The notes beneath the pieces were generated by a model. It was not told the origin of the DNA. It was given only the letters and a program-made list of their open reading frames with translations, and did not search any database. From a virus, in the UHGV virus genome UHGV-0197770: DNA of 36,302 nt; one strand, 5' to 3'. Below, in pieces: positions 112-16,353 of this stretch (position 1 is its first letter; each line of letters begins with the position of its first letter). The position numbers and the translations under genes are program-made.

Positions 112-852
112 ATGCGTAAAATCATTCATGTGGATATGGACTGCTTTTTCGCAGCGGTGGAGATGCGCGACAATCCCGCCCTGCGCGATATCCCTATTGC
201 TATTGGCGGCAGCCGCGAACGACGGGGGGTGATCAGCACCGCCAATTATCCCGCGCGTAAATTTGGCGTACGTAGCGCTATGCCGACAGGGATGGCGCTC
301 AAATTATGCCCGCATCTCACCTTGCTTCCAGGGCGCTTTGACGCCTACAAAGAAGCCTCAAATCATATCCGCGAAATTTTCTCGCGCTATACCTCGCGCA
401 TTGAACCGTTATCACTGGATGAAGCCTATCTCGATGTCACCGATAGCGTCCATTGCCACGGTTCTGCGACCCTCATCGCCCAGGAAATCCGCCAGACGAT
501 CTTCAACGAGCTGCAACTGACGGCGTCTGCGGGCGTGGCACCAGTAAAGTTTCTCGCCAAAATCGCCTCCGACATGAATAAACCCAACGGCCAGTTTGTG
601 ATTACGCCGGCAGAAGTTCCGACATTTTTACAAACCTTACCGCTGGCAAAAATTCCCGGCGTCGGCAAAGTCTCGGCGGCAAAACTGGAAGCGATGGGGC
701 TGCGGACCTGCGGTGATGTGCAAAAGTGTGATCTGGTGATGCTGCTTAAACGCTTTGGCAAATTTGGCCGCATTTTGTGGGAGCGTAGTCAGGGCATTGA
801 CGAACGCGACGTTAACAGCGAAAGGTTGCGAAAATCCGTTGATCAGACATGA
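112..852 (+). CDS. dinB: DNA polymerase IV (DinB), 3-prime truncated: about 243 host codons fused to 3 phage-derived codons and a stop
   Basis: Translation [26 protein letters not shown]... matches E. coli DinB (351 aa from memory) up to ...RLRKSV, then diverges (DQT-stop) where phage DNA starts. Confidence 0.9.
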
Positions 853-882
853 GATAAATGAAGGGGGATCCGTGAGATAAAT
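851..882. repeat. Direct repeats GAGATAAAT x2 at the prophage terminus; candidate transposase end-binding sites
   Basis: GAGATAAAT at 851-859 and 874-882 (23-bp spacing) within 45 bp of the host junction; a degenerate AGATAA copy at 945-955. Confidence 0.4.
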
Positions 883-1200
883 AACGAATTGGAGTGGGTT
901 AACATGGGTTCTGGTGAACAGAACTGAAATTCTTTTCCGCTATACGATAGATAAGTCGGGCATTGAAATCATCCTTCCTGGCAACTTAGAATCGAGTTTG
1001 CTGAAACATGACCCGCAACAAAAAGGATGATTCCAATGACTACTCAAAACAATAAGCATGATAGCCTGGATTACTCAGAAAAGCCCAAAAGCAAGCACAT
1101 CGTGACGTTCGAGCGCGATTCCGGTAGAAAAGGAGAATCGTCTTCCTCTGCCAATAAAACCACTATGCCGGCAGCCCCTGCCCCAGGGAAAAAATAAACA

Positions 1201-1833
1201 TCATTCATCGTTCGTTGCACGAACGCGCCTGATCTCCACTCTGGCAATCTGATCTGCTGGAATATAGGTTGCCAGAGCTCCCCAGTACTTATCAACCACG
1301 CCTTTATACTCTTCCCATTCGTTACTGCCTGAAGGGCTGCTGTGCGTGACGTAAAGAACCATATCGCCTTTATTCCCCAGGGTAAACGGACCGTTAGGCC
1401 ACTCTTCAAAGTTCCCTGGCAGCCGTGACATCATACCGGAACCATCGCGAAGAATCACTCTGACCTCGGTAACGCTGAAGCCTGTTTGATCAAACATTGC
1501 CTGCCATGCTGAGCTGGTATCGTCAGACCATGAAACATCATTATTCCACAGTAATCTGTACATCCATTTGCGACCGTACCTGCGCCACCACGCACCGCAT
1601 GTAACGGCACACAGAAGTGCTGGTGGTGTTGCCAGCCAGGCATTCAGACCTGCCCACATAACAGCCTGGTAAGCCATCATTGCTGTCAGGCCAAAAATCA
1701 GCGAAGAAAAAGTCACCTCAATGGGCTTGTGGTGATCCTTCAGTCCCACATTCGCAATAAAATACCCAATATAGCCACTGGTCAGGGTCACCAGTGTTGC
1801 CCATGGCAGATTTAACAACGAAACGTCAAACAT
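1201..1833 (-). CDS. Membrane protein of unknown function (about 3 N-terminal TM helices plus ~130-aa soluble C-terminal domain); terminal accessory gene
   Basis: Start chosen at MFDVSLLNL because GGGAG lies 6 nt upstream; hydrophobic segments LPWATLVTLTSGYIGYFIANVGL and VTFSSLIFGLTAMMAYQAVMWAG; lies downstream of an intrinsic terminator. Confidence 0.6.
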   Translation of the reverse strand: MFDVSLLNLPWATLVTLTSGYIGYFIANVGLKDHHKPIEVTFSSLIFGLTAMMAYQAVMWAGLNAWLATPPALLCAVTCGAWWRRYGRKWMYRLLWNNDVSWSDDTSSAWQAMFDQTGFSVTEVRVILRDGSGMMSRLPGNFEEWPNGPFTLGNKGDMVLYVTHSSPSGSNEWEEYKGVVDKYWGALATYIPADQIARVEIRRVRATNDE

Positions 1834-1871
1834 ATTTTCTCCCTGCATCCTGAATACTAAAGAGAGAGCAT

Positions 1872-1905
1872 AAAAAAAGCACGGTAAGGGGTCTACCGTG
1901 CTTTT
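1872..1905 (-). terminator. Rho-independent terminator ending the leftward early operon (bidirectional hairpin)
   Basis: Stem AGCACGGTA / TACCGTGCT (1878-1886 / 1894-1902), 7-nt loop, flanked by A7 on plus strand (U7 on minus) and TTT on plus. Confidence 0.6.
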
Positions 1906-1947
1906 ATACAATAAGGAGATTTTTGAAAGGACTTTAACAAGCAGGAA

Positions 1948-2346
1948 TTATCTGGATTTGTTAACGTCTTTCGTCTCCTCTGGCAGATCTTCATCAAACA
2001 ACCTGCCCTGCATCCGATCCAGTTCTTCTTTTCTGACCCGCTTAACCACGCTGTAGACCCACTGAAGCGAAACACCAAACTTGCGGGCCAGTTCGTGGTG
2101 GTTGCGTCCGTTAAACTCCCTGAAGATTTCCCGGTCGCGCTGACTGACCTTCCATACCATGCCCATCGGGAAATAAACGTTTTGCCCGCCCCAGACCTGC
2201 ATCATTCGGTTCGCGACGGCCTGACCAATCTGGTCGGCAATTGCGGGCTCAATATCAATAATCTCGCGAACGGTCTCAGAGGTATGCTGTGCCAGCTCCA
2301 CCAGGAGTTCCGGCCCTTTACTTCGAAACTGATTCAGGTCGCTCAT
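1948..2346 (-). CDS. Mor/C-family transcriptional activator of middle/late genes
   Basis: 132 aa with C-terminal HTH ELARKFGVSLQWVYSVVKR typical of Mu Mor/C; last gene of early operon as in Mu; GGGAG RBS. Confidence 0.7.
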   Translation of the reverse strand: MSDLNQFRSKGPELLVELAQHTSETVREIIDIEPAIADQIGQAVANRMMQVWGGQNVYFPMGMVWKVSQRDREIFREFNGRNHHELARKFGVSLQWVYSVVKRVRKEELDRMQGRLFDEDLPEETKDVNKSR

Positions 2347-2767
2347 GTTTTACTCCCGCAGCTCTGTGCTGCCACTTCTTCAGTTTCTCAATAACACTGC
2401 TTGCCTGTTCAGTATTGAGCCAGCGCAGGGCGCTGATGCCCGTTTCCCGCTTGATCCACCGCGCTAATGCATTTTCTGAACGGTCACGAACAATGCCGGC
2501 AGCAGCCATTTCAAGCCATAGCGCACGAATTTTCCTGGACTGCGGATGGTTATCCAGCGGTAAACCGGAGCTGGCTTTTCTGGCTGGTTTAACGCGAAAG
2601 CCTTTCTTTTTCATGGATTCCAGCACGCAGTTTAGTTGTGTGGTATCCATTCCTTTGGTTGAGGCTTTACCGGTCAGCCCCTGTAACATCTGGCGGTAGG
2701 TGTCTTCATCCATACCCAGTTCATTACGGGCAATATGGATAAGCTGTATCAGGCGTTTTTTCTGCAT
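2318..2767 (-). CDS. GemA-like protein (Mu gp16 family, DUF1018)
   Basis: 149 aa; N-terminal RLIQLIHIARNELGMDEDTYRQML resembles Mu GemA; sits immediately upstream of Mor as in Mu; AGGAG RBS. Confidence 0.55.
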   Translation of the reverse strand: MQKKRLIQLIHIARNELGMDEDTYRQMLQGLTGKASTKGMDTTQLNCVLESMKKKGFRVKPARKASSGLPLDNHPQSRKIRALWLEMAAAGIVRDRSENALARWIKRETGISALRWLNTEQASSVIEKLKKWQHRAAGVKHERPESVSK

Positions 2768-2768
2768 A

Positions 2769-2975
2769 TCATCTCCTTTTTTTCAGTCTGTCGGCAACAA
2801 TGTCGGTTGCAGCTGGCAGGGTGACTGGCCAGAACAACATGACGGCGGTCATGTACAGGATGTAATGCGCGGTGTCGTAGTGCCTGCCATAGCCCAGGGA
2901 ACGATGAAGTCTTGCGCTGCATGATCCTGCGTACATATACCAGAAAAGAAAACAGACAATGGTTTCAGTAGTCAT
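2769..2975 (-). CDS. Small hydrophobic protein (68 aa)
   Basis: Internal start MTTETIV preceded by GGGGAGG; two hydrophobic stretches. Confidence 0.4.
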   Translation of the reverse strand: MTTETIVCFLFWYMYAGSCSARLHRSLGYGRHYDTAHYILYMTAVMLFWPVTLPAATDIVADRLKKRR

Positions 2976-3195
2976 TCTGAATACCTCCCCATTCGATATG
3001 AATATTACGGGCAGCAATGACAGGGTCGTTATTCCACCATGCACCTGACATGTATTTTTCAACCTGTTCGCGTCCGGCAATAACACCAATTGTGATCCCC
3101 GGCCTGACGTTCTTAAAAAAGGCGCGGGCAAAAAGGTATCTGGCAGATATTCGGCAGGCTTTTAATTTCCGGCTGTTACCTGATAGCGTAATCAT
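2965..3195 (-). CDS. Hypothetical early protein (76 aa)
   Basis: GGAGG 5 nt upstream of ATG; ATGA start/stop overlap with upstream gene indicates translational coupling. Confidence 0.45.
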   Translation of the reverse strand: MITLSGNSRKLKACRISARYLFARAFFKNVRPGITIGVIAGREQVEKYMSGAWWNNDPVIAARNIHIEWGGIQNDY

Positions 3196-3875
3196 CTGGC
3201 CTCCAGTTTCTGTTGTTCCTGCCCACTGACCGGGCGGTGCAGTCTGACGTTCTGCCCTTCACGAAACCCCGCATAGCGCGAGGCGTCGCCATTGCGGCTT
3301 CTTCCCGGTTTACGCGCCCTGGTGGTTTGCGTTTGCGGGTATTTATGTTCCAGCCACTGTTGCATCAGTTCACGCTCATCATCGGTCAGGGCAAAGGACT
3401 GTATTTCACTGATAACGGCCAGTACCCAGCCTTCAGCAAACTGGTCTCCACGGCTGGTACGGGTGGCGTTTTTTATTCTTTTGTTCTGTGCGCTGATATA
3501 CTGCTGACGCGCCTTTTTCAGCTGGCGGACCAGCACTTCCCAGGTGTACGCAGCCAGTGCCGCTCGTTCCCGGTTACCGTAGAACCCCACAGACGGATGC
3601 GTGCCGGGGTGAATGATGGAGTTAACACCAAATGCCTCGCGGATGATGTTCATCAGGCCCAGCATGTAGCGCGGTGGACGGAGACTGCCTGTCGGCCAGT
3701 AATGACTGATGGTTTCATCAATATCACTCATAGCAATGTCGGAATGTGTGATGCCGTGAACATCCATCAGTTTACGGGCTCGGCGCAGTGCCAGAGCGGC
3801 CTCGTGCGGGTTGCCGGATGCGGCCAGCGCCAGCAACTTTTTCAGTTTCTCAATGTGTTTATTCTGGTCTGTCAT
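3192..3875 (-). CDS. Hypothetical early protein, DUF2786-like N-terminus
   Basis: Start chosen at MTDQNKHIEKL (ATGA overlap with upstream stop); motif IEKLKKLLALAASGNPHEAALALRRARKLM resembles DUF2786 phage proteins. Confidence 0.5.
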   Translation of the reverse strand: MTDQNKHIEKLKKLLALAASGNPHEAALALRRARKLMDVHGITHSDIAMSDIDETISHYWPTGSLRPPRYMLGLMNIIREAFGVNSIIHPGTHPSVGFYGNRERAALAAYTWEVLVRQLKKARQQYISAQNKRIKNATRTSRGDQFAEGWVLAVISEIQSFALTDDERELMQQWLEHKYPQTQTTRARKPGRSRNGDASRYAGFREGQNVRLHRPVSGQEQQKLEAR

Positions 3876-4087
3876 TGTTCTGTATCTCCGGTATTTTTCT
3901 GCCGTTTCCATGCCCGGACAGCGTCGGACAGCTCTTTCAGGCTGTATGCTGCTTTAAGCTTTTCCCATAACCACTGTGTTGTTATGTGCATCAGCAGGGC
4001 AGCCAGGGCTGCCCCCGCACTGAGGCATGTCGCCAGGCCAGTAAGAATCAGTGTCCATGCGGTGATTTCCCTGAGTATGTCAGCCAT
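3872..4087 (-). CDS. Small membrane protein (71 aa)
   Basis: GGGAGG RBS; hydrophobic core WTLILTGLATCLSAGAALAALLM. Confidence 0.5.
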   Translation of the reverse strand: MADILREITAWTLILTGLATCLSAGAALAALLMHITTQWLWEKLKAAYSLKELSDAVRAWKRQKNTGDTEQ

Positions 4088-4101
4088 TGAATGCCTCCCG
4101 G

Positions 4102-4398
4102 TTACTCGTTCGTGTAAATCACGCCCAGTCGTGCAGCCAGACGTTCCAGTTTTTTCTGTTTGTGGAAGTCAATCAGCCGGTCCATCCCCTGAAGGCGCAG
4201 TTGCTCTGTCATGATTTCCACGTCTGCCAGCTCTGCCGCGAGGTCACTTTCGCTGCCCTGTCCGTTCAGGTTGCGGGCGGCACTGGCCGCCAGTTCAGCG
4301 GCCTCTTCTGTCAGTTTCAGGGCCTGTGCGTCCGGCCCGAAACGCTGCAGGGCCAGACGGTAGAGGGCGGTGCGGGTGAGTTCGGTGTTCCGTGTCAT
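4102..4398 (-). CDS. MazG-like nucleotide pyrophosphohydrolase domain protein
   Basis: 98 aa with paired acidic motifs TEEAAELAASA and ELADVEIM characteristic of small phage MazG-like proteins; GAGGG RBS. Confidence 0.55.
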   Translation of the reverse strand: MTRNTELTRTALYRLALQRFGPDAQALKLTEEAAELAASAARNLNGQGSESDLAAELADVEIMTEQLRLQGMDRLIDFHKQKKLERLAARLGVIYTNE

Positions 4399-4407
4399 GC
4401 CGCGCCC

Positions 4408-4680
4408 TCAGTGTTTCCGGTCGACGGTGATGTTCAGGCCGCCTTCTGCAGTGGTTTCCATCCGGTACGGCACCTCATGCTCTGCCGTGTGGGTGAGTGT
4501 GTTCACCAGTACCTGCAGGGCAGCCGCCTTTCCGTTGGTCGCCACAATGGCCTGAGCGGTCATGCTGATTAGCGCCGTCAGGACGTGCTTCACATCGGTG
4601 AGGTCGCGGCATTCACACTCGTTGACATAGTGTTCAACAAGGGTTCGGGTGCGCTGTCGTGCTTCCTGTGGGGTAATCAT
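4408..4680 (-). CDS. Hypothetical early protein (90 aa)
   Basis: GGGAGGA RBS 7 nt upstream; tightly packed in operon. Confidence 0.45.
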   Translation of the reverse strand: MITPQEARQRTRTLVEHYVNECECRDLTDVKHVLTALISMTAQAIVATNGKAAALQVLVNTLTHTAEHEVPYRMETTAEGGLNITVDRKH

Positions 4681-4871
4681 TGCGAGTCCTCCCTGTCAGG
4701 GCGGGAGAATTCCATGACGGGCACGTCTGCCGAAAAATGCTGGCTGCAGTACGGGCAGACCAGGGTGACGCGTACCGCAGGGATGTGGTATTTACCGGAC
4801 ATCACGGCGATGGCGCTGTGAAAACGCAGGGCTGTTATATCCCTCTCGCACTGAATACATTTAAATATCAT
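4677..4871 (-). CDS. Small zinc-ribbon protein (64 aa)
   Basis: CxxC ... CxxC pattern (CIQCERD ... CPYCSQ); GAGGAG RBS. Confidence 0.45.
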   Translation of the reverse strand: MIFKCIQCERDITALRFHSAIAVMSGKYHIPAVRVTLVCPYCSQHFSADVPVMEFSRPDREDSQ

Positions 4872-4968
4872 GATTTAATTCTCCTCTGTTTCCGGCGTGC
4901 AGAAGCCCGCGGCGCTGACGCCGGAATAAAAAAGAAAATGTTTTTATTAAATAATTAACGTGGTGTGT

Positions 4969-5499
4969 TTACTGCACATCCTGCTCAAAAGGAATTATTG
5001 AAAAATCCTCAATGTCGCTTTTAATGGAAATACCGGGAATATTTTTCACGGCCTCTTTTTCATTCAGGATAGCGTCTTTATTTATTTCCTCTTTTACACG
5101 AATAAAGCGCTCAAGCCCCAGACGTCTCAGTAATTCAATAACATTATCCGCCCCACGGATACTGACTGATGGCGGACGGTTTCGCCACTGCACCTCGCCG
5201 GTGGTGAGGTTAGCGAACTTCACCTTCCCGTTGCCGGTCAGTTCATCACGGTGTGCCTCACACCATGTCTGAATACCGGACTGCAGTTCGGCCATGCGTT
5301 TTTTCAGGCTCTCGGTGAGCGGGGCATAACGTGCGGTGATATCGCCAATGGCGTCATTCATTTCTGTTTCAGCCCTGACCAGTTCACGTTGTGCGTCACC
5401 GAGTAGTCTGATTCCCTCAATGACCTCTTCACGTGTCCCCGGCACCCAGAGTGCTGCTGCGGCCTTGATACGTTTTGCACCTTTTGTACTTTTTGCCAT
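4969..5499 (-). CDS. gam: Gam-like host-nuclease inhibitor (Mu Gam / Ku-like family)
   Basis: 176 aa, size and early-region position of Mu Gam; conserved-looking W...GKVKF..GEVQWR core. Confidence 0.55.
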   Translation of the reverse strand: MAKSTKGAKRIKAAAALWVPGTREEVIEGIRLLGDAQRELVRAETEMNDAIGDITARYAPLTESLKKRMAELQSGIQTWCEAHRDELTGNGKVKFANLTTGEVQWRNRPPSVSIRGADNVIELLRRLGLERFIRVKEEINKDAILNEKEAVKNIPGISIKSDIEDFSIIPFEQDVQ

Positions 5500-5526
5500 T
5501 TTTTATGATTTCTCCAGTTGTGCTGA

Positions 5527-5796
5527 TTACCACAAAGATTCCGGCCACACGACGCGACAGCCGTGCAGTTCGAAAACGCCCTGACGGAAATATCCCCTGT
5601 GGTCATGTCCGGTATACAGATAACAGGCCTTTCCCTGCTCAAGCATGCGCATGCAATGCGCACTCCGGGAAACGCGGATGACAGGTTTGTTACCCCTGAT
5701 GGTGATGCTTTGTACATCCGTGTTCGTCGCCTTAAGCGCCATAATGGCTGACTGCACTTTGCTGATTTGCTGGTTGATACCTGTGGTGGATTTCAT
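5527..5796 (-). CDS. Hypothetical early protein (89 aa)
   Basis: ATG 2 nt downstream of the B-gene stop; weak AGGGG RBS. Confidence 0.4.
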   Translation of the reverse strand: MKSTTGINQQISKVQSAIMALKATNTDVQSITIRGNKPVIRVSRSAHCMRMLEQGKACYLYTGHDHRGYFRQGVFELHGCRVVWPESLW

Positions 5797-5798
5797 TA

Positions 5799-6965
5799 TT
5801 AAACCCCTTTGACAACGTCAGCGTTGACCTGTGGAACCCCGATTTCAGCGGCCAGATTCATGGCGGCTATTACCAGGTTACTGACGGCCAGCGGATACAG
5901 CAGGCTGACCATATTTTTACGATGACTTCCCGGATTGCTCAGGCGGGCACGTATGGCATCCACTGCGCTGGCGTCCATAATGTCCGTCAGTTGTTTACCG
6001 GCCCGTTGCAGTTTGAACGTCAGAAACTCTTCAAGGTTATTGTCCAGAGGCAGAAGTTCGACCACCTCACAGCGCTGAACGACTTCACGGACTTCCATAT
6101 TGCGTTCAGACAGTTTTGTCGCCAGTTCCGGCTGGCCAATCAGCACGATGGACAGCAGTTTTTTGAAACCGGACTCCAGCTCAAAAAAGCGTTTGAGGTG
6201 TTTCAGTGTCGGAATGGGCAGACTGTGGGCCTCCTCAATCACCAGAACGTGGCTGAACCCCGCCTGGCTGCTGTCTTTCAGGACGCGATGCAACTGGCGA
6301 AAGCGGGCGTCCTGACTGCGTCTGATGCTTTCCAGTGGTGCGATGGTACTGATAATGGCTTCGGCAATCGCTGCTGCCTTCAGGGTTTTCCCTTTCACAT
6401 CGTTGTCTTCCATAGCGATGATGTATGGCTCGATAACAATTACCGGCGCATTCTCGCGGTTGATACGTTCAGTCAGGTCGCGGCGCAGCGTGGATTTACC
6501 CGCACCGGACTCACCGATGACGGCCATAAACCCACCATGACGGGCTGTCTGGTACAACGCCTCACGCACGTAGCGAATATCCGGGGTGGTGAACACATCA
6601 TCAGAACCCTGCATGGCTTCGTCGGCGAATGGGTCACGGAAAAGACCAAACGCTTTTTTGGTTGCTGGAAATAACACCTGTTTTTTGAGTAACATATTCT
6701 CTTCCTCACTGAGGCTCGTTTTATCTGTGGTACCCGCTGTACGGGGCGTGGCCGCGCCCTGTACAGCATCAAAACTCTTCGTTGTATCAATCCCCTGACT
6801 TTCCAGCCAGGACGCAAGACGCCGGCGCACTTCTCCGGGGCGGGTGCGGGGCCACGCGTTATGATTCACAATCTGGGCCAGCGTGGCCTCAGAAACATCG
6901 ACAGCTCTCGCCACCACCGCCTGTGAGATACGGGCCTCTTTCAGTTGCTGCTTCAGTACCAGCAT
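5799..6965 (-). CDS. Transposition ATPase (MuB-like, AAA/TniB-type)
   Basis: Walker A GESGAGKST; N-terminal HTH; start at MLVLKQQ chosen because GAGGAGG lies 5 nt upstream; immediately follows transposase. Confidence 0.75.
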   Translation of the reverse strand: MLVLKQQLKEARISQAVVARAVDVSEATLAQIVNHNAWPRTRPGEVRRRLASWLESQGIDTTKSFDAVQGAATPRTAGTTDKTSLSEEENMLLKKQVLFPATKKAFGLFRDPFADEAMQGSDDVFTTPDIRYVREALYQTARHGGFMAVIGESGAGKSTLRRDLTERINRENAPVIVIEPYIIAMEDNDVKGKTLKAAAIAEAIISTIAPLESIRRSQDARFRQLHRVLKDSSQAGFSHVLVIEEAHSLPIPTLKHLKRFFELESGFKKLLSIVLIGQPELATKLSERNMEVREVVQRCEVVELLPLDNNLEEFLTFKLQRAGKQLTDIMDASAVDAIRARLSNPGSHRKNMVSLLYPLAVSNLVIAAMNLAAEIGVPQVNADVVKGV

Positions 6966-6975
6966 GTTTTCCTCC

Positions 6976-8745
6976 TCAGTTGCCGTTAACAATGCTGATA
7001 ACACTGCTGCGTGCCGGCGTGGTCAGCGTGGCCATGACTTCATCCAGTGCAGCTTCCGGTACGCCGTCCGGGTACTGTGCCGTTAACTGGCGGTAATGTT
7101 CCGGCGTCCAGGTAAGGCCGTCGGCGCTGAACTTATCGCGCAGGGCTTTCGCGGCCTCCACATGAGTCATGGGACGTTGTTCAGTGCGCGGCCCGCGTAC
7201 GTCAGAGGCCTGACCGCGCTTCGGCATATAGGCCGGAAGTGTGGCGTCATCAATATGTTTATACGGGTCAAGCCGCCCGCCGAACGGCAGCGCCTTCGCC
7301 TTGCGTGCGGCAGCTGCATCTGCGGCGTTGTCTGTACCGGTGACCAGCTCTTCGGTTTCTTTTGCCGCCATCTGCGCCGGGGTTTCCGGCAGGGCTTTGT
7401 AACTTTCGCCAAATACCGCCGCGCCTTCAGCAAAGCCAAACTCGTTCTTTCTGACCTCTTCGACCAGGAAGAACGTCTCGTGGCCGTCCTCACCGGTCAG
7501 AACCACCTGTGCCACATCGCTGCGCCACGGGTTACGGGTAATCATCAGTTTTTCACCGACCAGTACGCCCGGTACCGTTGATACGTCAAATTCAGTGCCC
7601 CGGAACGAGACACGAAGTTTTGGCGTGACTTTGCGGAGTTCTGGTGCCGCCACAGCCAGTTCACGACATACCTCAACGGAAGGCGCTTTTTTCAGCTGCT
7701 CAGCAGTAATCTTCAGCCAGATATCCGTGCGGGTTTTACCGTGGCGGCTGTGAACAGCCGTGGCGTTAAAGTGGCTGCGCCATTTCGCGGCCAGCGCGTT
7801 GAGTTCTTCCAGACTGTGAACCGGCCGGAACTTCAGACCCGGCTCCAGCTTGCGTTCGATAATGTCCCGCGCCTTTTCCACCTGTCCGGTGGCGCGGGCG
7901 TTATGCGGCTTGTGCGCTATCAGGTCAATGCCCAGTGAGCGGCACATGTTTTTCGTCATACCCGCGGTGTTTGCCGAGCCGGGGTCGAGATAGAGTATTT
8001 TTGGCACGCCGTGCAGCACGTCTGCGCCGCCACGCTCCTGCATGGCGTTGATAAGCACAGAACACAGGTTCTCACCGGATTCCGCACCCGTCACATACTC
8101 AACGTAAATCCAGCCGCTGGCATGGTCGGTAATCTCATAACTCCACACGCGGTCACTGGCGATACGGGCAAGGTTAGCGGGCTTGTTCTTGTAGAATTTC
8201 GCGCTGTCCATCACCTGCAGCCCTTTGTGTCCATTGCTCAGGTAGTAAAGCGTGCAGAGCGAGGCATCAATCTGCCAGACGTGATTGGGATGCAGACTGG
8301 CCACTTCGGTATGCGGCGCAGGGGCATCCAGTTGTTCCGGGTGCAGGCCATAGTTACGCAGGGCACGGCTGATGGCATCTTCGGACAACGGGAAAAACTC
8401 ACCGGTGGTTTCATCTGTTCTGCCTGCGGAGATAAAGCCGTTAGCCCGCAGGGTTTCCACTGCATCTGCGATGGAATAGAGACGCTTACCGTTCTTGCGG
8501 GTGGCCTCACGCAGTGTGGCAGATATCAGCGCGGCTTCGTCGCGGGTCAGGGCGCTGCGCCCGGCATCGGCGCGTTTTTTGCGTTTATCAGTCACAGAGA
8601 CCTCCTTCAGCCTGCGCAGCAGAGTGGCGCGGGACATGCCAAGTTCAGCACAGGCAGCGTCGTATATTGCACCGCGTTTACCATGCCCCGCGTCACGTGC
8701 CGCGCGGGCGACATAAACCAGTCGTTCAGTCAGGGCAGCATTCAT
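6976..8745 (-). CDS. DDE transposase (Mu A-like, integrase-core superfamily)
   Basis: 589 aa; N-terminal HTH (LGMSRATLLRRLKE); integrase-core-like segments HVWQIDAS and LYLDPGSANTAG; paired with B-like ATPase. Confidence 0.75.
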   Translation of the reverse strand: MNAALTERLVYVARAARDAGHGKRGAIYDAACAELGMSRATLLRRLKEVSVTDKRKKRADAGRSALTRDEAALISATLREATRKNGKRLYSIADAVETLRANGFISAGRTDETTGEFFPLSEDAISRALRNYGLHPEQLDAPAPHTEVASLHPNHVWQIDASLCTLYYLSNGHKGLQVMDSAKFYKNKPANLARIASDRVWSYEITDHASGWIYVEYVTGAESGENLCSVLINAMQERGGADVLHGVPKILYLDPGSANTAGMTKNMCRSLGIDLIAHKPHNARATGQVEKARDIIERKLEPGLKFRPVHSLEELNALAAKWRSHFNATAVHSRHGKTRTDIWLKITAEQLKKAPSVEVCRELAVAAPELRKVTPKLRVSFRGTEFDVSTVPGVLVGEKLMITRNPWRSDVAQVVLTGEDGHETFFLVEEVRKNEFGFAEGAAVFGESYKALPETPAQMAAKETEELVTGTDNAADAAAARKAKALPFGGRLDPYKHIDDATLPAYMPKRGQASDVRGPRTEQRPMTHVEAAKALRDKFSADGLTWTPEHYRQLTAQYPDGVPEAALDEVMATLTTPARSSVISIVNGN

Positions 8746-8748
8746 TGG

Positions 8749-9660
8749 TTATGCCTCCAGCCCGTTAATCTGTGGCGTCGGCTCAGTCAGCCATGAAGGC
8801 GCGACATCGCCTGTTGGCTCGTCCGGCAGGTCAAATGTGGAGCGCAGGCTACGCGCTGTGCTTTCCAGTTGACAGACCAGACCTGCCATGAAGTCTCTGG
8901 GGGTATCAATCATGTTTTCAGCACAATATGCGCACAGTGTCTCAAAAGCGCTGGACAGTCGAACGGCGATGGCAGATTCCGCCTCAACCGCTAATGCTGT
9001 CACTTCCGCCCGCAGCTTCTTAACCTCCTCATCAGGCTCAGGCAGCTGAATACGGGATTTCTTTTCCAGTCTGGTAGAGAGAGAATCAATTTTTTCATTT
9101 TTATCGGCGAGTACGCGCTGTTGTGCTGCGTTGGTTTCGCGCGCTTCGCGCAGGGCCTGGCGAAGTTCGCGTACTGACATGCGATCAACGTCGTCAAGCG
9201 TCAGGCCGGCAACTGTGCCGCCGTCGGCCAGTTCGGCAAGCTCTTCGTCGTCTTCTGTCATTAATTCGAAAAGTTTGGCTTTTCCCAAATGTGCCAACGT
9301 TGGCACATTTGGTTTCAGCGCCGGGGATAAGTATTTTGTCGATGCTTGCATCATTCTCACAGATGTCCGGTATGCCAGCCCCAACTCACTTTCAAGAATC
9401 TTTATAAACTCCCCGTGTGGTTCATTTTCCTTAAGGATTATCAGCCGCTTACCTGCCTCCAGCATGGCCTCAGCGCTCTGTGCCATATAAAAGCGTGCCT
9501 CATGGACAACACGATCGCGCTCATAAGGCAGACCATCGCCGAACTGTTGCATGATTTCCATGCGATGCTGTGTCATGGCGTTTAGACTGACATTGAGATC
9601 ATCCGACAGCGGTACCTCGACGTTCAGTTCAGTGCTAACCGGTGATTTGGTGCGTCCCAT
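8749..9660 (-). CDS. Hypothetical early protein (303 aa), acidic coiled-coil rich
   Basis: AAGGAG RBS 6 nt upstream; between regulators and transposase; no family recognised. Confidence 0.5.
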   Translation of the reverse strand: MGRTKSPVSTELNVEVPLSDDLNVSLNAMTQHRMEIMQQFGDGLPYERDRVVHEARFYMAQSAEAMLEAGKRLIILKENEPHGEFIKILESELGLAYRTSVRMMQASTKYLSPALKPNVPTLAHLGKAKLFELMTEDDEELAELADGGTVAGLTLDDVDRMSVRELRQALREARETNAAQQRVLADKNEKIDSLSTRLEKKSRIQLPEPDEEVKKLRAEVTALAVEAESAIAVRLSSAFETLCAYCAENMIDTPRDFMAGLVCQLESTARSLRSTFDLPDEPTGDVAPSWLTEPTPQINGLEA

Positions 9661-9670
9661 TGATTACTCC

Positions 9671-9979
9671 TTACAAACGACTACCTGAAATAACACGTTG
9701 GTTGATTTCGTTAATGCGATCCTGTGCACGTGCCATCTCGTTACTGTGGGCCATGGCGATCTGCAGCAACTGGATGCCTGGTGCGAAACGCCCGTTTTCT
9801 AGTTTCAGAGCCAACCCTTCTTCAATGAGCGTGTTAAGTGCCCGGTTGATGTTTGCCGGTGATTCGTGCAGTGCAACCGCTAGTTCCCCGTTAGAAACAC
9901 CGTTCAAAGCGTGGCCACGTAAGGCCTTAAGAACGCGCAAAATACGGATACCTGAGCTTGATGTATTTGGTTTATTCAT
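9671..9979 (-). CDS. Winged-helix DNA-binding regulator (102 aa)
   Basis: ILRVLKALRGHALNGVSNGELAVALHESPANINRALNTLIEEGLA looks like a wHTH; AAGGAGG RBS; ATGA coupling with Ner-like gene. Confidence 0.5.
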   Translation of the reverse strand: MNKPNTSSSGIRILRVLKALRGHALNGVSNGELAVALHESPANINRALNTLIEEGLALKLENGRFAPGIQLLQIAMAHSNEMARAQDRINEINQRVISGSRL

Positions 9980-10200
9980 GACGCCTCCTTAAGGATACCG
10001 GGGGTAACTTCTTTACCTATTGCAACCGATAGATCTCGCAAAATCCGATAAGTCAAACGACCGCGAGGTAGTTCACTTTTACCAGCCCAGCGACTGACTG
10101 CCTGGGTGACTGTTCGTGGTTCATAGCCCGCGTTAAGCGCGAACTGGCGCAAGCTACTGCCTCGTTCAACCAGCCGTGCCCGAACTTGTTGTTTGTTCAT
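9976..10200 (-). CDS. Ner-like DNA-binding protein (first gene of early operon)
   Basis: 74 aa from ATG (GTG 6 nt upstream also possible); HTH LRQFALNAGYEPRTVTQAVSR resembles the Mu Ner family; divergent from repressor. Confidence 0.55.
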   Translation of the reverse strand: MNKQQVRARLVERGSSLRQFALNAGYEPRTVTQAVSRWAGKSELPRGRLTYRILRDLSVAIGKEVTPGILKEAS

Positions 10201-10288
10201 ATGCACCGTGTTCCTGTTAGGTTATGATGTACTCTATTGGGTCTATTGTACACACCCAAATGAGTGTGTCAAATTGAGATATGTTCAA
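10201..10288. promoter_or_regulatory. Divergent promoter/operator region between early operon and repressor gene
   Basis: Inverted repeats TGTAC-N15-GTACA (10228-10252, containing tandem TCTATTG half-sites) and CACAC-N8-GTGTG (10251-10268). Confidence 0.5.
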
Positions 10289-10696
10289 ATGAGTACAAAA
10301 GAGAGATTGCGTGAAGTGATGGATGCTAATGGCATGACAATAAAGGCATTATCTGACTTATCAAAAATTCCATATCGCTCACTTCAAAACTATTTGCGTG
10401 GAGAGAGAGAACCAAACGCAGAGGCTCTTGTTGCGCTAAGTACCCATTTGGGTGTATCAATCGATTGGCTACTTACCGGTAAAGAACATATTCCATCTAA
10501 AGAAATTGTTGCTGTACCAACACAACATCAATTCAGCCCGTCAGACCTTAAAATGCTTGAACTTCTAAACCAGTTAGATCCTGAGGTTCGGCGAGATCTC
10601 ATGCGAGGCGCTGAAGAAAAACAGCGTGTGATTGAGATGGAAAAACAACTGAAGGAATTATCCGCAACGATTGAGCGGTTAAAAAATGTGGGTTAA
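10289..10696 (+). CDS. XRE-family HTH repressor (phage c-repressor candidate) with C-terminal coiled coil
   Basis: ATG at 10289 preferred over upstream TTG; HTH LSDLSKIPYRSLQNYLRGEREPNAEALVALSTHLGVSIDWLLTGK; divergent from early operon. Confidence 0.65.
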   Translation: MSTKERLREVMDANGMTIKALSDLSKIPYRSLQNYLRGEREPNAEALVALSTHLGVSIDWLLTGKEHIPSKEIVAVPTQHQFSPSDLKMLELLNQLDPEVRRDLMRGAEEKQRVIEMEKQLKELSATIERLKNVG

Positions 10697-10766
10697 TGTG
10701 TTCCTAACGAGAACATATAGCAGAAATTATTTGCCATTAAGCAATAAAAAATAAGGTGGATAGCCA

Positions 10767-11774
10767 ATGTCTGAGCAGACCATTGAAGTTAAACACGTTG
10801 TAGTTCACATTTTAGACAAACAACAAAATGGAGACGCTTCTGAGAGATTGAGTCCTGAAGAAGGTCTAGTTACTGAAGCCTCTCAGCGCCTTATAAACGA
10901 TATTTGTGCAAAATATGCAGGACGCACAGGTAAAGGTTATGGCTATTTTGAAGGCGATACGGATAACTATCCTATGGAACGAATGGCTGGGGACTTTCTC
11001 GAAGGTGTTGATGATTTCTACCAAAGTTCCTGCCGAATGATGCATCACCTGACGGAACGTTCTCAGCGAGAAAACATGGCTACTGGTGGTTATGTTCTTT
11101 TTGCAAATATCGTGATAGGACACAATGAACACCTGTTGATAGCTATTGTAAGCGCTACCATTGGGTCCACTGTCACAGATGATTTTAACATCCAAGATAG
11201 TACCTATCTTGATATTGCTAAGCTGCGTATGGCTGGGCGCATTGACTTAACCGCGTGGGAAAGTGGCGCAGAGCGCTATATCAGTTTTCTTAAGGGGCAA
11301 GGTAATGTTTCAAACTATTTTAAACAGTTCCTAGGCTGTAATGATGTCTTAATCGCCAAACGAGAGTCTGAAAAGTTACGTGACGTTTTAAAAGCATTTG
11401 CGGCAGAGAAAGGACTTGACGGCGCTGAAAAAGATGCATTTCTTAAGAGTGCGTTTGAACACTTACATGCACTAAGTAAGGCTGGTGAACCACTTAGTCT
11501 TGAAACCCTTGTTAATGCCATTTGGCCCCAGGCTCCCGAGGAGTTATCTGGTAAACTTGCTGCTGAAGAGTTGGAGTTATCGGATGGCTTCGTTCCTGAT
11601 GGTCGAGTCATTCGGGCTCTGGTATCTTTTAAAGGCAAGTCTAAATATTGGGAACTTAAGTTTGACCGGGAAGGGAAAACTGAAGGCTATATTGATTATG
11701 ATCCGGAAACAAATATTATCACCCTACGTAATGTACCTGAAGAATTTAGGGAAATGTGGATGACTGAGGTTTAA
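10767..11774 (+). CDS. NdpA/YejK-family nucleoid-associated-protein homologue (phage-borne paralogue); candidate sensor of a two-gene defence cassette
   Basis: 335 aa (same length as E. coli YejK); blocks GGYVLFANIV..HLLIAIV, YLDIAKLRMAGRIDLTAWESG..ERYISFLKG...FLG and C-terminal NIITLRNVPEEFRE align to my recollection of YejK; AAGGTGGA RBS; AT-rich. Confidence 0.6.
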   Translation: MSEQTIEVKHVVVHILDKQQNGDASERLSPEEGLVTEASQRLINDICAKYAGRTGKGYGYFEGDTDNYPMERMAGDFLEGVDDFYQSSCRMMHHLTERSQRENMATGGYVLFANIVIGHNEHLLIAIVSATIGSTVTDDFNIQDSTYLDIAKLRMAGRIDLTAWESGAERYISFLKGQGNVSNYFKQFLGCNDVLIAKRESEKLRDVLKAFAAEKGLDGAEKDAFLKSAFEHLHALSKAGEPLSLETLVNAIWPQAPEELSGKLAAEELELSDGFVPDGRVIRALVSFKGKSKYWELKFDREGKTEGYIDYDPETNIITLRNVPEEFREMWMTEV

Positions 11775-11776
11775 TC

Positions 11777-12982
11777 GTGGCGATTTCATTTGAGATGCTG
11801 ACAGCTCTGTATCGTCGTATGGAATTCCAAGAGGGGTTTCGTGTCGGTTCGCTGTTGCTCTTAGATCAGTCCGATTGTGATCTGGTTGATACTTTGCTTG
11901 ATGATCCTCGTGAATATGGTCTTTCTATTGATACAGGCACTATCGCTCCAGGTAACACGATCATCCTACGTGTGACGTCACCACGGAGTGGACTGGGACT
12001 TGTGTTTTCCACCCATGAAAAATTGCTAAATGCTCCAAAGCATCAGTGCCTTGAGCCAGCTAATTACTTCATCCTAGAAACAAAATTTCGTAATGATGAT
12101 GAAGATATCCCCGTTTTCATCAGCAACTACCGGAAGATTCTCGAGTTCGTTAACCTGCTAAAAGAGGCCGCGGCCTACTTTGATAACTCAACTTGTCAGT
12201 TAGTTTTTCTGAAAAAAGAAGTTATCAAGCTATTACCGCACTTCGCTGCAGAAAATGTACAAAATTTGCAAAGGGAGTATCTTGATAACCTTATAGCTTG
12301 TTTCAATGATGATACCCATAAGGATCAGAAGCTAGATATTCTGATTGAAAGTATTCAAGCAGTTAGTGATGGAATTGATTCACCTCTAGTATTCGCTTAT
12401 TTACTGGACAATATTCAGCGTCTGCATGAAAAGTTTCTGAAAGGGTATCGTATCTACTCTTCTGGATTCTCTTATGACAAAGTAATGGATCAACTGCGTG
12501 CTGCAAAAGTCGAAGAAATGGGTAAAATCCACAAAGCGTTTTCAGATATCCAGAACCATATACTTGGCATTCCTGTTGCCTCTGTTATCGTAGCTACCCA
12601 ATTCAAAGTGGCTACGAAATGGTCAGGCCAAGGGATAACAAACACAATAATTCTTCTGGGATGCATTTTTGCTGCAACGTTAATCTGGCTGGCACTTTCG
12701 AACCAGATGCAATCTATAAAGGCCTTAGGCGAAGAAATTGAATACAAAGAAAAACAGATTAATAAGGAATATTCCTTCATTAAAGATGACGTGGCTGGTG
12801 TATTTAGCAGTATTTCTGCGCGACTAGACACGCAGAAACGTACGTTCTGGATTATACGTGGTGTTCTAGTTATGGGAATTATTACCGCTATCACTGTTTA
12901 TTTTTGGTACACAAAACCAGCCCTTGACTTCATGCAGTACTTGATTCACTGCATGAAGTCTTACTATTCGGTCAAAAGTTGA
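11777..12982 (+). CDS. Protein with ~270-aa soluble N-terminal domain and two C-terminal TM helices; candidate membrane effector
   Basis: GTG start 2 nt after upstream stop with GAGG RBS (coupled); hydrophobic helices ITNTIILLGCIFAATLIWLAL and FWIIRGVLVMGIITAITVYFWY; no family recognised. Confidence 0.55.
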   Translation: MAISFEMLTALYRRMEFQEGFRVGSLLLLDQSDCDLVDTLLDDPREYGLSIDTGTIAPGNTIILRVTSPRSGLGLVFSTHEKLLNAPKHQCLEPANYFILETKFRNDDEDIPVFISNYRKILEFVNLLKEAAAYFDNSTCQLVFLKKEVIKLLPHFAAENVQNLQREYLDNLIACFNDDTHKDQKLDILIESIQAVSDGIDSPLVFAYLLDNIQRLHEKFLKGYRIYSSGFSYDKVMDQLRAAKVEEMGKIHKAFSDIQNHILGIPVASVIVATQFKVATKWSGQGITNTIILLGCIFAATLIWLALSNQMQSIKALGEEIEYKEKQINKEYSFIKDDVAGVFSSISARLDTQKRTFWIIRGVLVMGIITAITVYFWYTKPALDFMQYLIHCMKSYYSVKS

Positions 12983-13742
12983 GGATAATGAGTTCCTTCT
13001 TGCGACTGGATTTGCCAGTGATCTTGAGGTTGTAGCTGATATCAACCGACTGAATATTTAGACCGTTGAATGCCTGCCGCATTTCCGGGATATCGTTCAC
13101 CGATATAATCATCTTCCCTTTGATCCTGCGTGCTAAATCTGCCATATGATCATAATTTTCTAGTCCGAACTCCACACCATAACCTTCCGTTCCCCAGTAT
13201 GGAGGGTCACAGTAGAACAACGTATGCGGGCGATCATATCGTTCTATGCACTGTTGCCAGTCCATGTGTTCTATGACCGTTCTGGAAAGCCGCAGGTGTG
13301 CCGCTGACAGTTCTTCTTCAATACGCAGCAGGTTGAAGCGTGGCGGGGATATGGTGGAGGTACCAAAGCTGTGCTCCGCCACCTTGCCCCCAAACGCCTG
13401 CTTCTGAAGGTAGTAGAACCGTGCTGCACGCTGGATATCCGTCAGTGTTTCTTCCGGGGTGATCTGCAGCCATTTGTAGATCTGCCGGCTGACCAGCGCC
13501 CATTTGAACTGGCGTACAAATTCTTCCAGATGATGTTTTACCACCCGATACAGGTTCACCAGCTCACCGTTGATATCATTAATGACTTCGATCTTGCCGG
13601 GTACCTTAAGAAAATAGAGCGCTGCTGCCCCACAAAACGGCTCCACATAACATTCATGCGCCGGAAACAGCGGCAGGATGTGTTTTGCAAGGCGGCGTTT
13701 GCCACCAATCCATGGAACGATGGGTAATGTCTGCATTTTCAT
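12972..13742 (-). CDS. Dam-family N6-adenine DNA methyltransferase (orphan)
   Basis: WIGGKRRL, EPFCGAAALYF and DPPY motifs parallel E. coli Dam; no adjacent restriction endonuclease; 3-prime end overlaps the convergent upstream gene by 11 nt. Confidence 0.8.
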   Translation of the reverse strand: MKMQTLPIVPWIGGKRRLAKHILPLFPAHECYVEPFCGAAALYFLKVPGKIEVINDINGELVNLYRVVKHHLEEFVRQFKWALVSRQIYKWLQITPEETLTDIQRAARFYYLQKQAFGGKVAEHSFGTSTISPPRFNLLRIEEELSAAHLRLSRTVIEHMDWQQCIERYDRPHTLFYCDPPYWGTEGYGVEFGLENYDHMADLARRIKGKMIISVNDIPEMRQAFNGLNIQSVDISYNLKITGKSSRKKELIILNF

Positions 13743-13924
13743 AATCTGTAAGCCTTTTACAATTATAAAAAATATGGCAGGCTAGTCTGGTCTCGCGAGA
13801 CTGACTGAACCTTGGTCGGCTCACAGCGCATTCCTGTGGGGCGATGGCCAGCCCGGTGTTCGGGTACCGGGCTGGTCGTTCTTTCAAAGCCATCATGCAG
13901 TGCACGTTTACATCTTCACTATTA

Positions 13925-13945
13925 ACGCTGTTTAAAATCCGTATC
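13925..13945 (+). promoter_or_regulatory. Candidate late promoter (copy 1 of a shared TTTAA(A/T)ATC motif) upstream of lysis/head operon
   Basis: TTTAAAATCCGTATCCCG about 50 nt upstream of the first late gene; related motif recurs at 21124, 27041 and 33341. Confidence 0.4.
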
Positions 13946-13989
13946 CCGCCACATTTGTGATGCTGTCTCCACCAAACGAGGAGACACAC

Positions 13990-14340
13990 ATGAAAAACCT
14001 GAAAAAATTCATTCCCCCTGTTAAAAAACCTCGCCTCAGCGGCTGGCTGCTGACCTCAGTGCTGTTGCTGGGCATCATCGCTCTGGTCTCGCCACAGCAG
14101 TTGCCTGTTGTGATCTACAAGCTGGCACTCATCACGCTGGCAGCAGTGCTGGGGTACTGGCTTGACCGTTCGCTCTTCCCCAAAGCCCGTCCCGGTCAGT
14201 ACCTGAAACATGAAGACAGGCTGATGGCTGAAGGGCGTTTCCCTGTGCAGACCGGCCTTCACCTTGTATTTTCTGCTGCGTTAATCCGCCGTGCACTGAT
14301 TGTTGCAGCTGTCTGTCTGGCTGTTGCGATGGGGCTTTAA
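13990..14340 (+). CDS. Membrane protein, 3 predicted TM helices; holin candidate
   Basis: Start at MKNLKKF with GAGGAG 6 nt upstream; first gene of lysis cassette directly before endolysin. Confidence 0.45.
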   Translation: MKNLKKFIPPVKKPRLSGWLLTSVLLLGIIALVSPQQLPVVIYKLALITLAAVLGYWLDRSLFPKARPGQYLKHEDRLMAEGRFPVQTGLHLVFSAALIRRALIVAAVCLAVAMGL

Positions 14341-14342
14341 TC

Positions 14343-15083
14343 ATGAACTGGCCGCAGATCACCTGGATTGTATGCATGTCCCTGAAACTGGCTTTCGAAG
14401 CCTTTCGGGTCTTCATCAGAACCGAACGCCTGTCAGTCCGCGCCGGGACCTTTCTGGTTCATATGGCATGGGTATTCTTTGTCGCAATGTTGCTCTGGTG
14501 TGGCGGCTTTTTCAGCCAGGCATGCGCAGCGCAGCCTCCGCAGGTTGCGCTGCAGTATCGCGATGATGTGATCCGTAATGCCCGGCTTGAATGGGGACTG
14601 TCTGCGCCGGTGGCCGACTTCGCCGCGCAGCTGCATCAGGAAAGCGGCTGGCGACCTGATGCGGTCTCGCCGGCTGGCGCTCAGGGACTGGCGCAGTTTA
14701 TGCCCACCACCGCTGACTGGATAAGTCAGCTGATGCCGGGGCTTAACAGCCGTGAACCGTTTAATCCGGCGTGGGCCATCCGGGCGCTGGTCAGCTATGA
14801 CCGCTGGCTGTGGCAACGCGTCAGCGCCGCCAGTGACTGCGAGCGTATGGCCATGACGCTGTCAGGCTATAACGGTGGTCTGGGCTGGGTACAGCGGGAC
14901 AAACGGCTGGCCTCGCAGCAGGGGCTGGACAGCACCCGCTGGTTCGGACATGTCGCCACGGTGAATGCCGGACGCAATGCGGCCAGCTGGCGGGAGAACC
15001 GCCATTATCCGCAGCGCATCCTGCGCGAACTGGCACCGCGATATCTCACATGGGGAGGCAGCAGTTGTGTGGCATCTGGTTAA
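14343..15083 (+). CDS. Endolysin, SLT-domain lytic transglycosylase with N-terminal signal/SAR-like hydrophobic segment
   Basis: ESGWRPDAVSPAGAQGLAQFMPTTA and GYNGG motifs of the SLT family; hydrophobic MAWVFFVAMLLWCGGFF near N-terminus (alternative start at 14463). Confidence 0.7.
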   Translation: MNWPQITWIVCMSLKLAFEAFRVFIRTERLSVRAGTFLVHMAWVFFVAMLLWCGGFFSQACAAQPPQVALQYRDDVIRNARLEWGLSAPVADFAAQLHQESGWRPDAVSPAGAQGLAQFMPTTADWISQLMPGLNSREPFNPAWAIRALVSYDRWLWQRVSAASDCERMAMTLSGYNGGLGWVQRDKRLASQQGLDSTRWFGHVATVNAGRNAASWRENRHYPQRILRELAPRYLTWGGSSCVASG

Positions 15084-15717
15084 AAAGCTGCCGTGGCGCG
15101 GCATTCTGCTGGCCATTCTTATCAATGCCTTTCTGGTCGGCCTGTATGCCATGGGATACAGAAGTGGTCATGACTCTGCAAAGCGTGACGGTGATACCGC
15201 GCTCAGTCAGTTGCAGTCAGCGTTCGACACGTACAAAACGGAGCAGGCAACGCTTGAGAATGCTGCGCTGCGGGCCTGGGCCAGACGGTATCAGGAGCAG
15301 GTGGCCGCCGGGCAGCGGGCTGAAGCCGGTTATCTTGAGCAGATTGCTCAACTGGAGAGCCGGAATAAACAACTACAGGGGCAAATTAACGATGTCACAC
15401 AGCGCTGGATTGATGAAAAAGGTAAGAGCCATCCCATTGAGTGCGTGTTTACTCGCGGTTTCGTGCGCCAGTACAACGCCGCACTCGGATATGACAACGC
15501 ATCCGTCGACACCGGTCATTCAGACTCAGTTGCCGCCGCTGGCACCCGCTCTGGCACAGCGACCGGGCAACCTGAAACCACTGACACCCGGTTACGCGAT
15601 TCGGGTGTCTCCCAGCGTGACGTTCTCGCCAACATCATCGACAACGCAGGACAATGTCGTCGCTGGCGGAACCAGATAAACGCGTTACTGGATGAACGGG
15701 AAGGATTACAGAAATGA
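15067..15717 (+). CDS. Rz-like inner-membrane spanin (i-spanin)
   Basis: GTG start with GGGGAGG 8 nt upstream; N-terminal TM WRGILLAILINAFLVGLYAMGY then coiled coil; follows endolysin. Confidence 0.55.
   Translation: MWHLVKKLPWRGILLAILINAFLVGLYAMGYRSGHDSAKRDGDTALSQLQSAFDTYKTEQATLENAALRAWARRYQEQVAAGQRAEAGYLEQIAQLESRNKQLQGQINDVTQRWIDEKGKSHPIECVFTRGFVRQYNAALGYDNASVDTGHSDSVAAAGTRSGTATGQPETTDTRLRDSGVSQRDVLANIIDNAGQCRRWRNQINALLDEREGLQK
15413..15679 (+). CDS. Rz1-like outer-membrane lipoprotein spanin (o-spanin), embedded in +1 frame of the Rz-like gene
   Basis: 88 aa; lipoprotein-type signal MKKVRAIPLSACLLAVSC then proline-rich mature region; entirely within i-spanin gene. Confidence 0.5.
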   Translation: MKKVRAIPLSACLLAVSCASTTPHSDMTTHPSTPVIQTQLPPLAPALAQRPGNLKPLTPGYAIRVSPSVTFSPTSSTTQDNVVAGGTR

Positions 15718-16040
15718 CACTGCAGGTTGAATTCTGGACGGTGGTGAGTTTTCTGCTCACCTTCATGGGGTTTGTGGGAGGGCTCGCCAAATGGTTGTTC
15801 AGTAAAACAGAAGAACGCCAGGCGGCACGATTCGCCTCCCTTGAACAGGCCCTGCAACAATCCGCCTCCAACTGGGGCGAGCTGGAAAAAGAATTTATGC
15901 GATTTAAAGCGGATTTACCGCTGAATTATGTCCGTCGAGAGGATTATATCCGTGGCCAGACAGTCATTGAGGCCAAACTGGACGCGCTTTATAACAAACT
16001 GGAAGTGGTACAGCAGTACCGCAATACCGGAGGTCAATAA
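15714..16040 (+). CDS. N-terminally anchored membrane protein with coiled coil; possible lysis accessory protein
   Basis: TM VVSFLLTFMGFVGGLAKWLF then coiled coil; between spanins and terminase genes. Confidence 0.4.
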   Translation: MTLQVEFWTVVSFLLTFMGFVGGLAKWLFSKTEERQAARFASLEQALQQSASNWGELEKEFMRFKADLPLNYVRREDYIRGQTVIEAKLDALYNKLEVVQQYRNTGGQ

Positions 16041-16351: not shown

Positions 16352-16353
16352 TT

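Follow-up and report, generated by a model that had tools for sequence, protein, structure and literature searches.

How does an E. coli gene for a translesion polymerase come to end in phage DNA, and what remains of the gene and of its SOS control? The DNA analysed here (UHGV virus genome UHGV-0197770, 36,302 nucleotides, referred to as the window) opens on the dinB locus and passes, inside dinB, into a phage genome. An earlier note, made from the sequence alone, had read this as a prophage inserted by Mu-type transposition. Comparison with complete genomes leads us to a more specific reading: very probably, a BcepMu-type temperate phage entered dinB by DDE transposition, in a gut E. coli strain with the Flag-2 cluster next to this gene.

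The host part of the window, positions 1–839, is 100% identical to many complete E. coli genomes with an intact 351-aa dinB, for example SA186 (NZ_CP022730). In these genomes it takes in the last part of lafU, the dinB promoter and 728 nt from the start of dinB. Compared base by base, SA186 dinB and the window match from the ATG through position 839 and not beyond. The intact gene reads AAAATCCGT followed by CGGTGTAG (in a longer stretch, AAAATCCGT followed by CGGTGTAGAACG), and the window reads AAAATCCGT followed by TGATCAGACATGAG. This alignment to an uninterrupted dinB, which the earlier note had proposed as a check, fixes the junction at 839/840. The first phage base is T840, the same first nucleotide at which the insertions of related phages begin, and all DNA from 840 on is phage, in keeping with the claim that the phage terminus directly follows dinB. 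The third position of codon 243 is supplied by the first phage base, and the codon still specifies Val. By ORF translation, base-by-base comparison and Pfam, the truncated gene (112–852, plus strand) encodes 246 aa, namely DinB residues 1–243 followed by D-Q-T and a TGA stop at 850–852, within the first terminal repeat of the phage. The reading frame suggested before, DinB up to about codon 243 and then three foreign codons and a stop, thus agrees exactly with the SA186 comparison.

The same junction is present in two public assemblies, ENA ERZ28649237 (scaffold_202) and Logan SRR4305316, which match the window at 100% identity over 10,852 and 6,164 bases, respectively, and are the only two contigs on which the exact 246-aa DinB product is recorded. 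They are probably assemblies of one sample from the same reads and do not count as independent evidence. Upstream of the junction, scaffold_202 continues for ~21 kb as contiguous chromosome spanning the Flag-2 genes through lafU. The phage left end lies inside dinB in none of 5,426 complete E. coli genomes, and the insertion appears to be a one-off, limited to one sample.

To place the phage part of the window, we fetched four complete related E. coli prophages: L003 (between yodD and dsrB), L004 (in kefF), L005 (in mdfA) and L007 (from strain FORC_031). The prophage (840–36302) is collinear with L003–L005 and with phage BcepMu (NC_005882), and it runs from the left end into the tail-fibre gene. 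By comparison with L003, the right ~2.7 kb lies beyond the window and comprises the remainder of the fibre gene, an invertible segment, a Gin-like recombinase gene and the right end.

Reading inward from the junction, a conserved 53-aa ORF (1036–1197, plus strand as for dinB; phrog_15726), preceded by a promoter-like site at 963–992, is followed by a run of minus-strand genes. The nearest of these encodes a 210-aa protein (1201–1833; gene call, PHROG phrog_12870) that is absent from BcepMu and whose sequence, read by eye, suggests a membrane protein. Both families in this left-end kilobase (1036–1833) are conserved PHROGs without known function, and both are missing in BcepMu. A strong terminator-like hairpin (1905–1875) separates the 210-aa gene from mor, which encodes a Mor-family late/middle transcription activator (1948–2346; Pfam PF08765, 56% identity to BcepMu gp01). 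Next come a GemA/gp16 family gene (2318–2767; PF06252, 43% identity to gp02), a DUF2786 gene, the Gam host-nuclease inhibitor (4969–5499; PF07352), an ExeA/Eha-like AAA+ transposition ATPase in the role of MuB (5799–6965; Pfam AAA_22, 59% identity to gp08) and a 589-aa DDE transposase of the Tn552/BcepMu type (6976–8745; Pfam rve, phrog_310 transposase). The series ends with a DUF3102 protein (8749–9660; Pfam and protein comparison, 42% identity to gp10) and small HTH regulators, one of which (9671–9979), close to where the leftward early operon begins, has a weak HTH match and is annotated as a helix-turn-helix protein in the relatives. A CI/Cro-type HTH repressor (10289–10696, plus strand; Pfam HTH_3 and Phage_CI_repr only) is divergent from this operon. 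Past the repressor, the plus strand carries cargo genes, a Dam methylase gene, lysis and head genes, and P2-like contractile tail genes. The direction of the early operon is therefore leftward: it points at the dinB junction and finishes at the left terminus, with the repressor ~9.5 kb inside. Two features by which transposable phages are recognised are found here: the DDE transposase gene adjoins the AAA+ ATPase gene, and both Mor/C and GemA regulators are present.

The transposase identifies the kind of phage. Over 581 aa it shares 68.7% identity with BcepMu gp09 (E = 0), whose annotation is that of a Tn552/IS1604 rve transposase; the relation of BcepMu-type transposases to Tn552 and the TG...CA form of the termini have been described (PMC2628397). 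A MuA-type transposase was considered and rejected, as the best BLASTP alignment to Mu A covers 12 aa with E = 5.4 and Pfam finds rve only; in BLASTP against MuA and MuB no match was better than E = 3.4. BcepMu (genus Bcepmuvirus) and BcepMu-like prophages of Proteobacteria have the same gene order and are collinear with the present phage gene by gene. Common to BcepMu and this phage are the leftward Mor, GemA, ATPase, rve transposase and gp10 genes, the divergent CI-type repressor, and a rightward part with holin, SLT endolysin, Mu-like head genes and P2-like contractile tail genes. The E. coli phage differs from BcepMu in ~1 kb of additional DNA at the left end, which holds the 53-aa and 210-aa genes. 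At the right end, the four fetched prophages and L016–L018 carry a Mu-like invertible tail-fibre segment and a Gin-type recombinase, where BcepMu has an acyltransferase. BcepMu gave no megablast match to window positions 840–20000 among 50,697 phage records. Judged by DNA identity, the phage is thus not a member of the genus of BcepMu, and the relationship is one of proteins and architecture.

With Mu (NC_000929), the phage has in common a temperate lifestyle, transposition to essentially random sites, gene interruption, TG...CA ends and a short target duplication, along with Mor/C, GemA, Gam, Mu-like portal, F and G head genes and an invertible fibre segment. The early region, however, is inverted relative to the ends, and the repressor is of the HTH_3/CI type rather than Mu c; the Muvirus layout, with the repressor at the left end and a rightward early operon, is not found. 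The whole Mu genome has six putative transposase-binding sites (PMC2628397), as against two presumed sites per end here. Transposase type, duplication length (below) and layout rule out Mu proper (Muvirus), and on proteins and architecture the inserted element is BcepMu-like. Of the earlier proposal of Mu-type transposition, the transposable prophage, the many insertion sites and the short duplications stand; the assignment to Mu itself gives way to a phage with a BcepMu-type rve transposase and an inverted early region. With the Tn552 and B3-family DDE transposases, as these are described, the enzyme shares the rve core and a 6-bp duplication; here, unlike in Tn552, the transposase serves a 38-kb phage genome and not a small resistance transposon. 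The nearest deposited phage is Escherichia phage PhiKM (PQ738613), with 95.5% identity over 58% of window positions 840–20000, followed by Phi06_2974 B and Klebsiella phage KP12 at ~86% identity to the same interval. None of the three spans the left 1.1 kb or the immunity/cargo region, and none is recorded in dinB.

The phage ends have the form expected of such an element. The left terminal sequence (840–882, plus strand; repeat finder) consists of TGATCAGACA followed by two direct copies of TGAGATAAAT at 850–859 and 873–882, spaced by 23 bp, which are presumed to be transposase-binding sites. With the right-end layout taken from relatives, each end carries the repeat G(A/C)GATAAAT twice, at offsets +12 and +35. 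The left end begins TGATCAG in the window and the right end, again from relatives, finishes in GCGCATCA, giving TG...CA termini with the repeats inverted between the ends. BcepMu likewise has TG...CA termini and two GATA(A/T)(A/T)T-containing repeats per end, at the same offsets as in the present phage.

This left end recurs widely. It is present at 98–100% identity in 118 of the 5,426 complete E. coli genomes and at no fewer than 19 different loci, among them kefF, yehQ, otsA, irp1, yodD, proP, phnP, fadM, mdfA, yejF, yfaV, tdh and xylR, and some genomes hold two or three copies. In 11 IMG/VR contigs homology starts exactly at TGAT, with ten different flanks, and four further insertion sites came to light through a look-up of the exact tape-measure allele. 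Many unrelated sites with short duplications, and no att or tRNA site, are thus observed among the relatives, the copy in dinB presenting its left side only. BcepMu-type transposable phages emerge as active mutagens of E. coli chromosomes, found in ~2% of complete genomes and in many genes. The phage in dinB is of a known and fairly common kind, at a new insertion site in a dispensable gene, and its insertion is an ordinary event.

The four complete prophages allowed the duplication to be read directly. All start with TGATCAGACATGAGATAAATG and finish with GCATTTATCGCGCGGCGCATCA; the intact L003–L005 measure 37.7–38.5 kb, and L007, which is without the transposase region, 32.9 kb. The flanking direct repeats of L003, L004, L005 and L007 are CGCTGT, TCCTGT, GCAAAT and CATTTC, respectively, perfect over 6 bp in 4/4 and over 7 bp in 0/4. 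In three of the four the sixth base is T, which could also reflect a 5-bp duplication next to a T borne by the phage; this was excluded, as the duplicated sixth base of L007 is C. The length of 5 bp expected by the earlier note, which is that of the target-site duplication of Mu, thus does not hold for this group: the relatives have 6 bp in all four resolved insertions. A 6-bp repeat is the footprint of B3/Tn552-family transposases (PMC8705779). For annotation, the lesson is that the limits of such prophages should be set by TG...CA ends together with a duplication of 6 bp; the 5-bp rule of Mu does not apply.

The duplication at dinB is accordingly predicted to be 6 bp long, since 4/4 resolved related insertions carry 6-bp duplications; its left copy would be ATCCGT, the last six host bases (834–839), within codons 241–243. 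The predicted right junction then reads GCGCATCA, ATCCGT and CGGTGTAG in its shorter form and GCATTTATCGCGCGGCGCATCA, ATCCGT and CGGTGTAGAACGTACGATGGCG in its longer one. It was not found in the JGI metagenomes, IMG/VR or the GTDB representative genomes, nor was the left junction sequence found in the IMG/VR scan. Two apparent right-junction matches in JGI proved to be chance 22-mer matches in unrelated GC-rich contigs. Look-ups of exact proteins did not reach the right junction. The ORFs that cross the predicted junction measure only 27–32 aa, below what gene calling would have recorded, and all right-hand phage proteins proved too common to lead to the short contigs of the sample.

On this model, the 589-aa rve transposase, aided by its AAA+ partner, would bind at each phage end to the pair of G(A/C)GATAAAT repeats, cleave at the terminal 5′-TG...CA-3′ and join the ends to the target with a 6-bp stagger over codons 241–243 (ATCCGT). 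Gap repair would then duplicate the six target bases.

Two derivatives of the phage were encountered. In L007 (FORC_031, NZ_CP013190, 37902–39214) the region of transposase, ATPase and gam has been lost by internal deletion; judged from its gene content, L007 is a grounded, non-mobile derivative that retains both ends and the 6-bp duplication. An unannotated 145-bp relic of the left end (~90% identity to window 849–993) lies on plasmid pSA186_2 (NZ_CP022731; L015 3001–3144) and at ~105 plasmid places in all; the plasmids are large (~190 kb) and belong to E. coli, in many cases to poultry strains. The relic keeps both putative transposase-binding repeats, lacks the terminal 9 nt including the TG, and has IS remnants nearby.

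Could the window be explained other than by a simple insertion? The left junction might be real, with the 3′ part of dinB since removed or moved by a phage-mediated rearrangement, either through replicative transposition that deleted or inverted adjacent DNA or through recombination of two copies of the prophage; no duplication would then be found at the far end. The failure of the junction searches to find the right end of the dinB insertion fits such a history, as do the genomes with two or three left-end copies, which offer substrates for recombination, and the existence of defective derivatives such as that of FORC_031 without its transposase region. Yet the 4/4 resolved insertions, FORC_031 included, are simple and have perfect 6-bp duplications, and the prophage in the window looks intact and is collinear with the complete relatives as far as it extends. 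We regard a later rearrangement as unlikely.

An error of assembly, in which dinB and a phage end were wrongly joined and the real dinB is intact, is a natural concern given the metagenomic source and the probable origin of the assemblies with this junction from the same reads. The break, however, coincides exactly with nucleotide 1 of the phage terminus, a position shared by 15 other independent insertions; dinB (TCCGT/CGGTG at the join) and the phage end (TGATCAG) have no sequence in common there; and at least two different assemblers produced the same join. A chimera is very improbable on these grounds. Nor does the dinB DNA look like a host flank packaged in virions, as would arise if Mu-type headful packaging had captured one of many replicative sites with no stable lysogen. 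Transposable phages do package host DNA at both ends (PMC5977238), but heterogeneous flanks would give no single clean junction, and this reading is excluded, to a degree that leaves it hardly any weight, because scaffold_202 holds ~21 kb of contiguous chromosome upstream, which exceeds the capacity of a virion beside a genome of ~38 kb. Simple insertion of the phage into dinB is the explanation that we carry forward.

What the insertion costs the host is best seen in the domains of DinB. Pfam recovers IMS, IMS_HHH and the thumb domain from the 246-aa product and does not find IMS_C, which occupies residues 240–347 of intact DinB; the clamp-binding motif QLVLGL is present in the intact allele only. 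The limits of Pol IV have been placed at 166–240 for the thumb and 243–351 for the little finger, with clamp contacts at VWP 303–305 and QLVLGL 346–351 (PMC4564189). By these limits, the insertion takes away the entire little finger and both clamp contacts (VWP 303–305 and QLVLGL 346–351), upholding the claim that the little finger and the clamp-binding tail are lost. Of DinB, the lysogen would make no more than a 246-aa stub that retains palm, fingers and thumb. A Y-family polymerase without little finger and clamp contacts is expected to have lost Pol IV function. Because both are gone here, the lysogen should be null for Pol IV translesion synthesis, and the insertion would represent a natural Pol IV knockout by a phage.

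Natural dinB-null alleles of other kinds exist in E. coli, and they too leave a catalytic stub of ~240 aa, with the little finger as a separate 103-aa ORF. They arise by point mutation or small deletion, whereas the present allele is a phage insertion of ~38 kb, which also disconnects the gene downstream from the SOS promoter. In L010 (5257–6312) and 17 further similar places codon 240 of dinB is a premature stop, and a 10-bp deletion of ATTTTGTGGG in L011 and L012 (5267–6312) leads to a 241-aa product. The 103-aa C-terminal little-finger ORF is on ~680 contigs, and those that could be read carry a mutated dinB and no phage. dinB is thus repeatedly lost in nature through simpler mutations, and the phage event adds little new biology in this respect.

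The regulatory region of dinB is untouched. A consensus scan places promoter-like hexamers, TTCTCA and TATACT separated by 16 nt, at 61–88 on the plus strand. A predicted LexA (SOS) box, CTGTATACTTTACCAG (CTG-N10-CAG), read directly at 80–95 with one mismatch to CTGT-N8-ACAG, overlaps the −10 hexamer. The 111 nt upstream of the dinB ATG, LexA box included, are 100% identical to the lineage with intact dinB. The expectation that the LexA-regulated promoter is kept is therefore well founded as far as these hexamers and the predicted box are concerned, both being identical to the intact locus.

After the new dinB stop there is just a weak hairpin at 907–925 (z = −1.1 against shuffles), and a strong terminator between the dinB remnant and the phage genes was rejected on that value. 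Since only this weak hairpin separates the dinB remnant from the phage genes, transcription that starts at the dinB promoter could plausibly continue into the phage left end. Such a transcript would be sense to the 53-aa ORF and antisense to the 210-aa gene, mor and gemA. That the SOS-inducible dinB promoter transcribes the prophage left end in such a way that host DNA damage then alters prophage expression or induction is a further step, and one that we consider quite unlikely. If true, the read-through matters, given a repressor without an S24 domain and a phage control region without a LexA box: Pfam detects no S24 self-cleavage peptidase domain in the CI-type repressor, and a motif scan of the control region found no LexA box.

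Downstream of the insertion, the effect would fall on yafP. In the matching host lineage yafP directly follows dinB, its start overlapping the dinB stop. We infer that yafP is cut off from the SOS promoter by ~38 kb, because the prophage sits between the promoter and yafP, which overlaps the dinB stop. The last phage gene of the relatives encodes a Gin-type recombinase and reads outward to the right end, and transcription of this gene may feed the 3′ part of dinB and yafP. In the same host lineage the yafN-yafO pair, an SOS-regulated toxin-antitoxin pair, is absent between dinB and yafP (L006 3664–4116); other E. coli have the order yafN-yafO-yafP (L010 6364–7520).

The right part of the phage varies among relatives. 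An invertible fibre segment resembling the G segment of Mu is present in L003 (34757–38940), L004 (34860–38349) and L005 (34817–39098), with the recombinase (Resolvase and HTH_7 domains) as last gene, and the fibre and assembly genes are oriented oppositely among related genomes. A draft contig, L019, terminates within the fibre gene as the window does, and contig ends at this place may reflect assembly breaks caused by inversion heterogeneity. In the N-terminal part of the tail fibre (window 35560–36010) there are three tandem copies of a motif of ~40–50 aa, of the form KGF/TVQLSSATNS(T/Q)SET(L/E)AATPKAVKAAYDLA, and the corresponding repeat motif of the relatives matches Pfam Phage_fiber_2.

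The region 9906–13078 has no counterpart among the four related E. coli prophages fetched. Within it, downstream of the repressor, lies a pair of cargo genes (10767–12982) for a 335-aa nucleoid-associated protein of the NA37/YejK type (Pfam E = 1e-80) and a 401-aa protein (phrog_5023), the C-terminal part of which is weakly KwaA-like (PADLOC E = 8e-5). On these similarities the module may be a phage-borne defence or exclusion cassette. The exact cargo proteins occur on at least 1,000 contigs, and relatives are found across Enterobacterales, including Salmonella Typhi.
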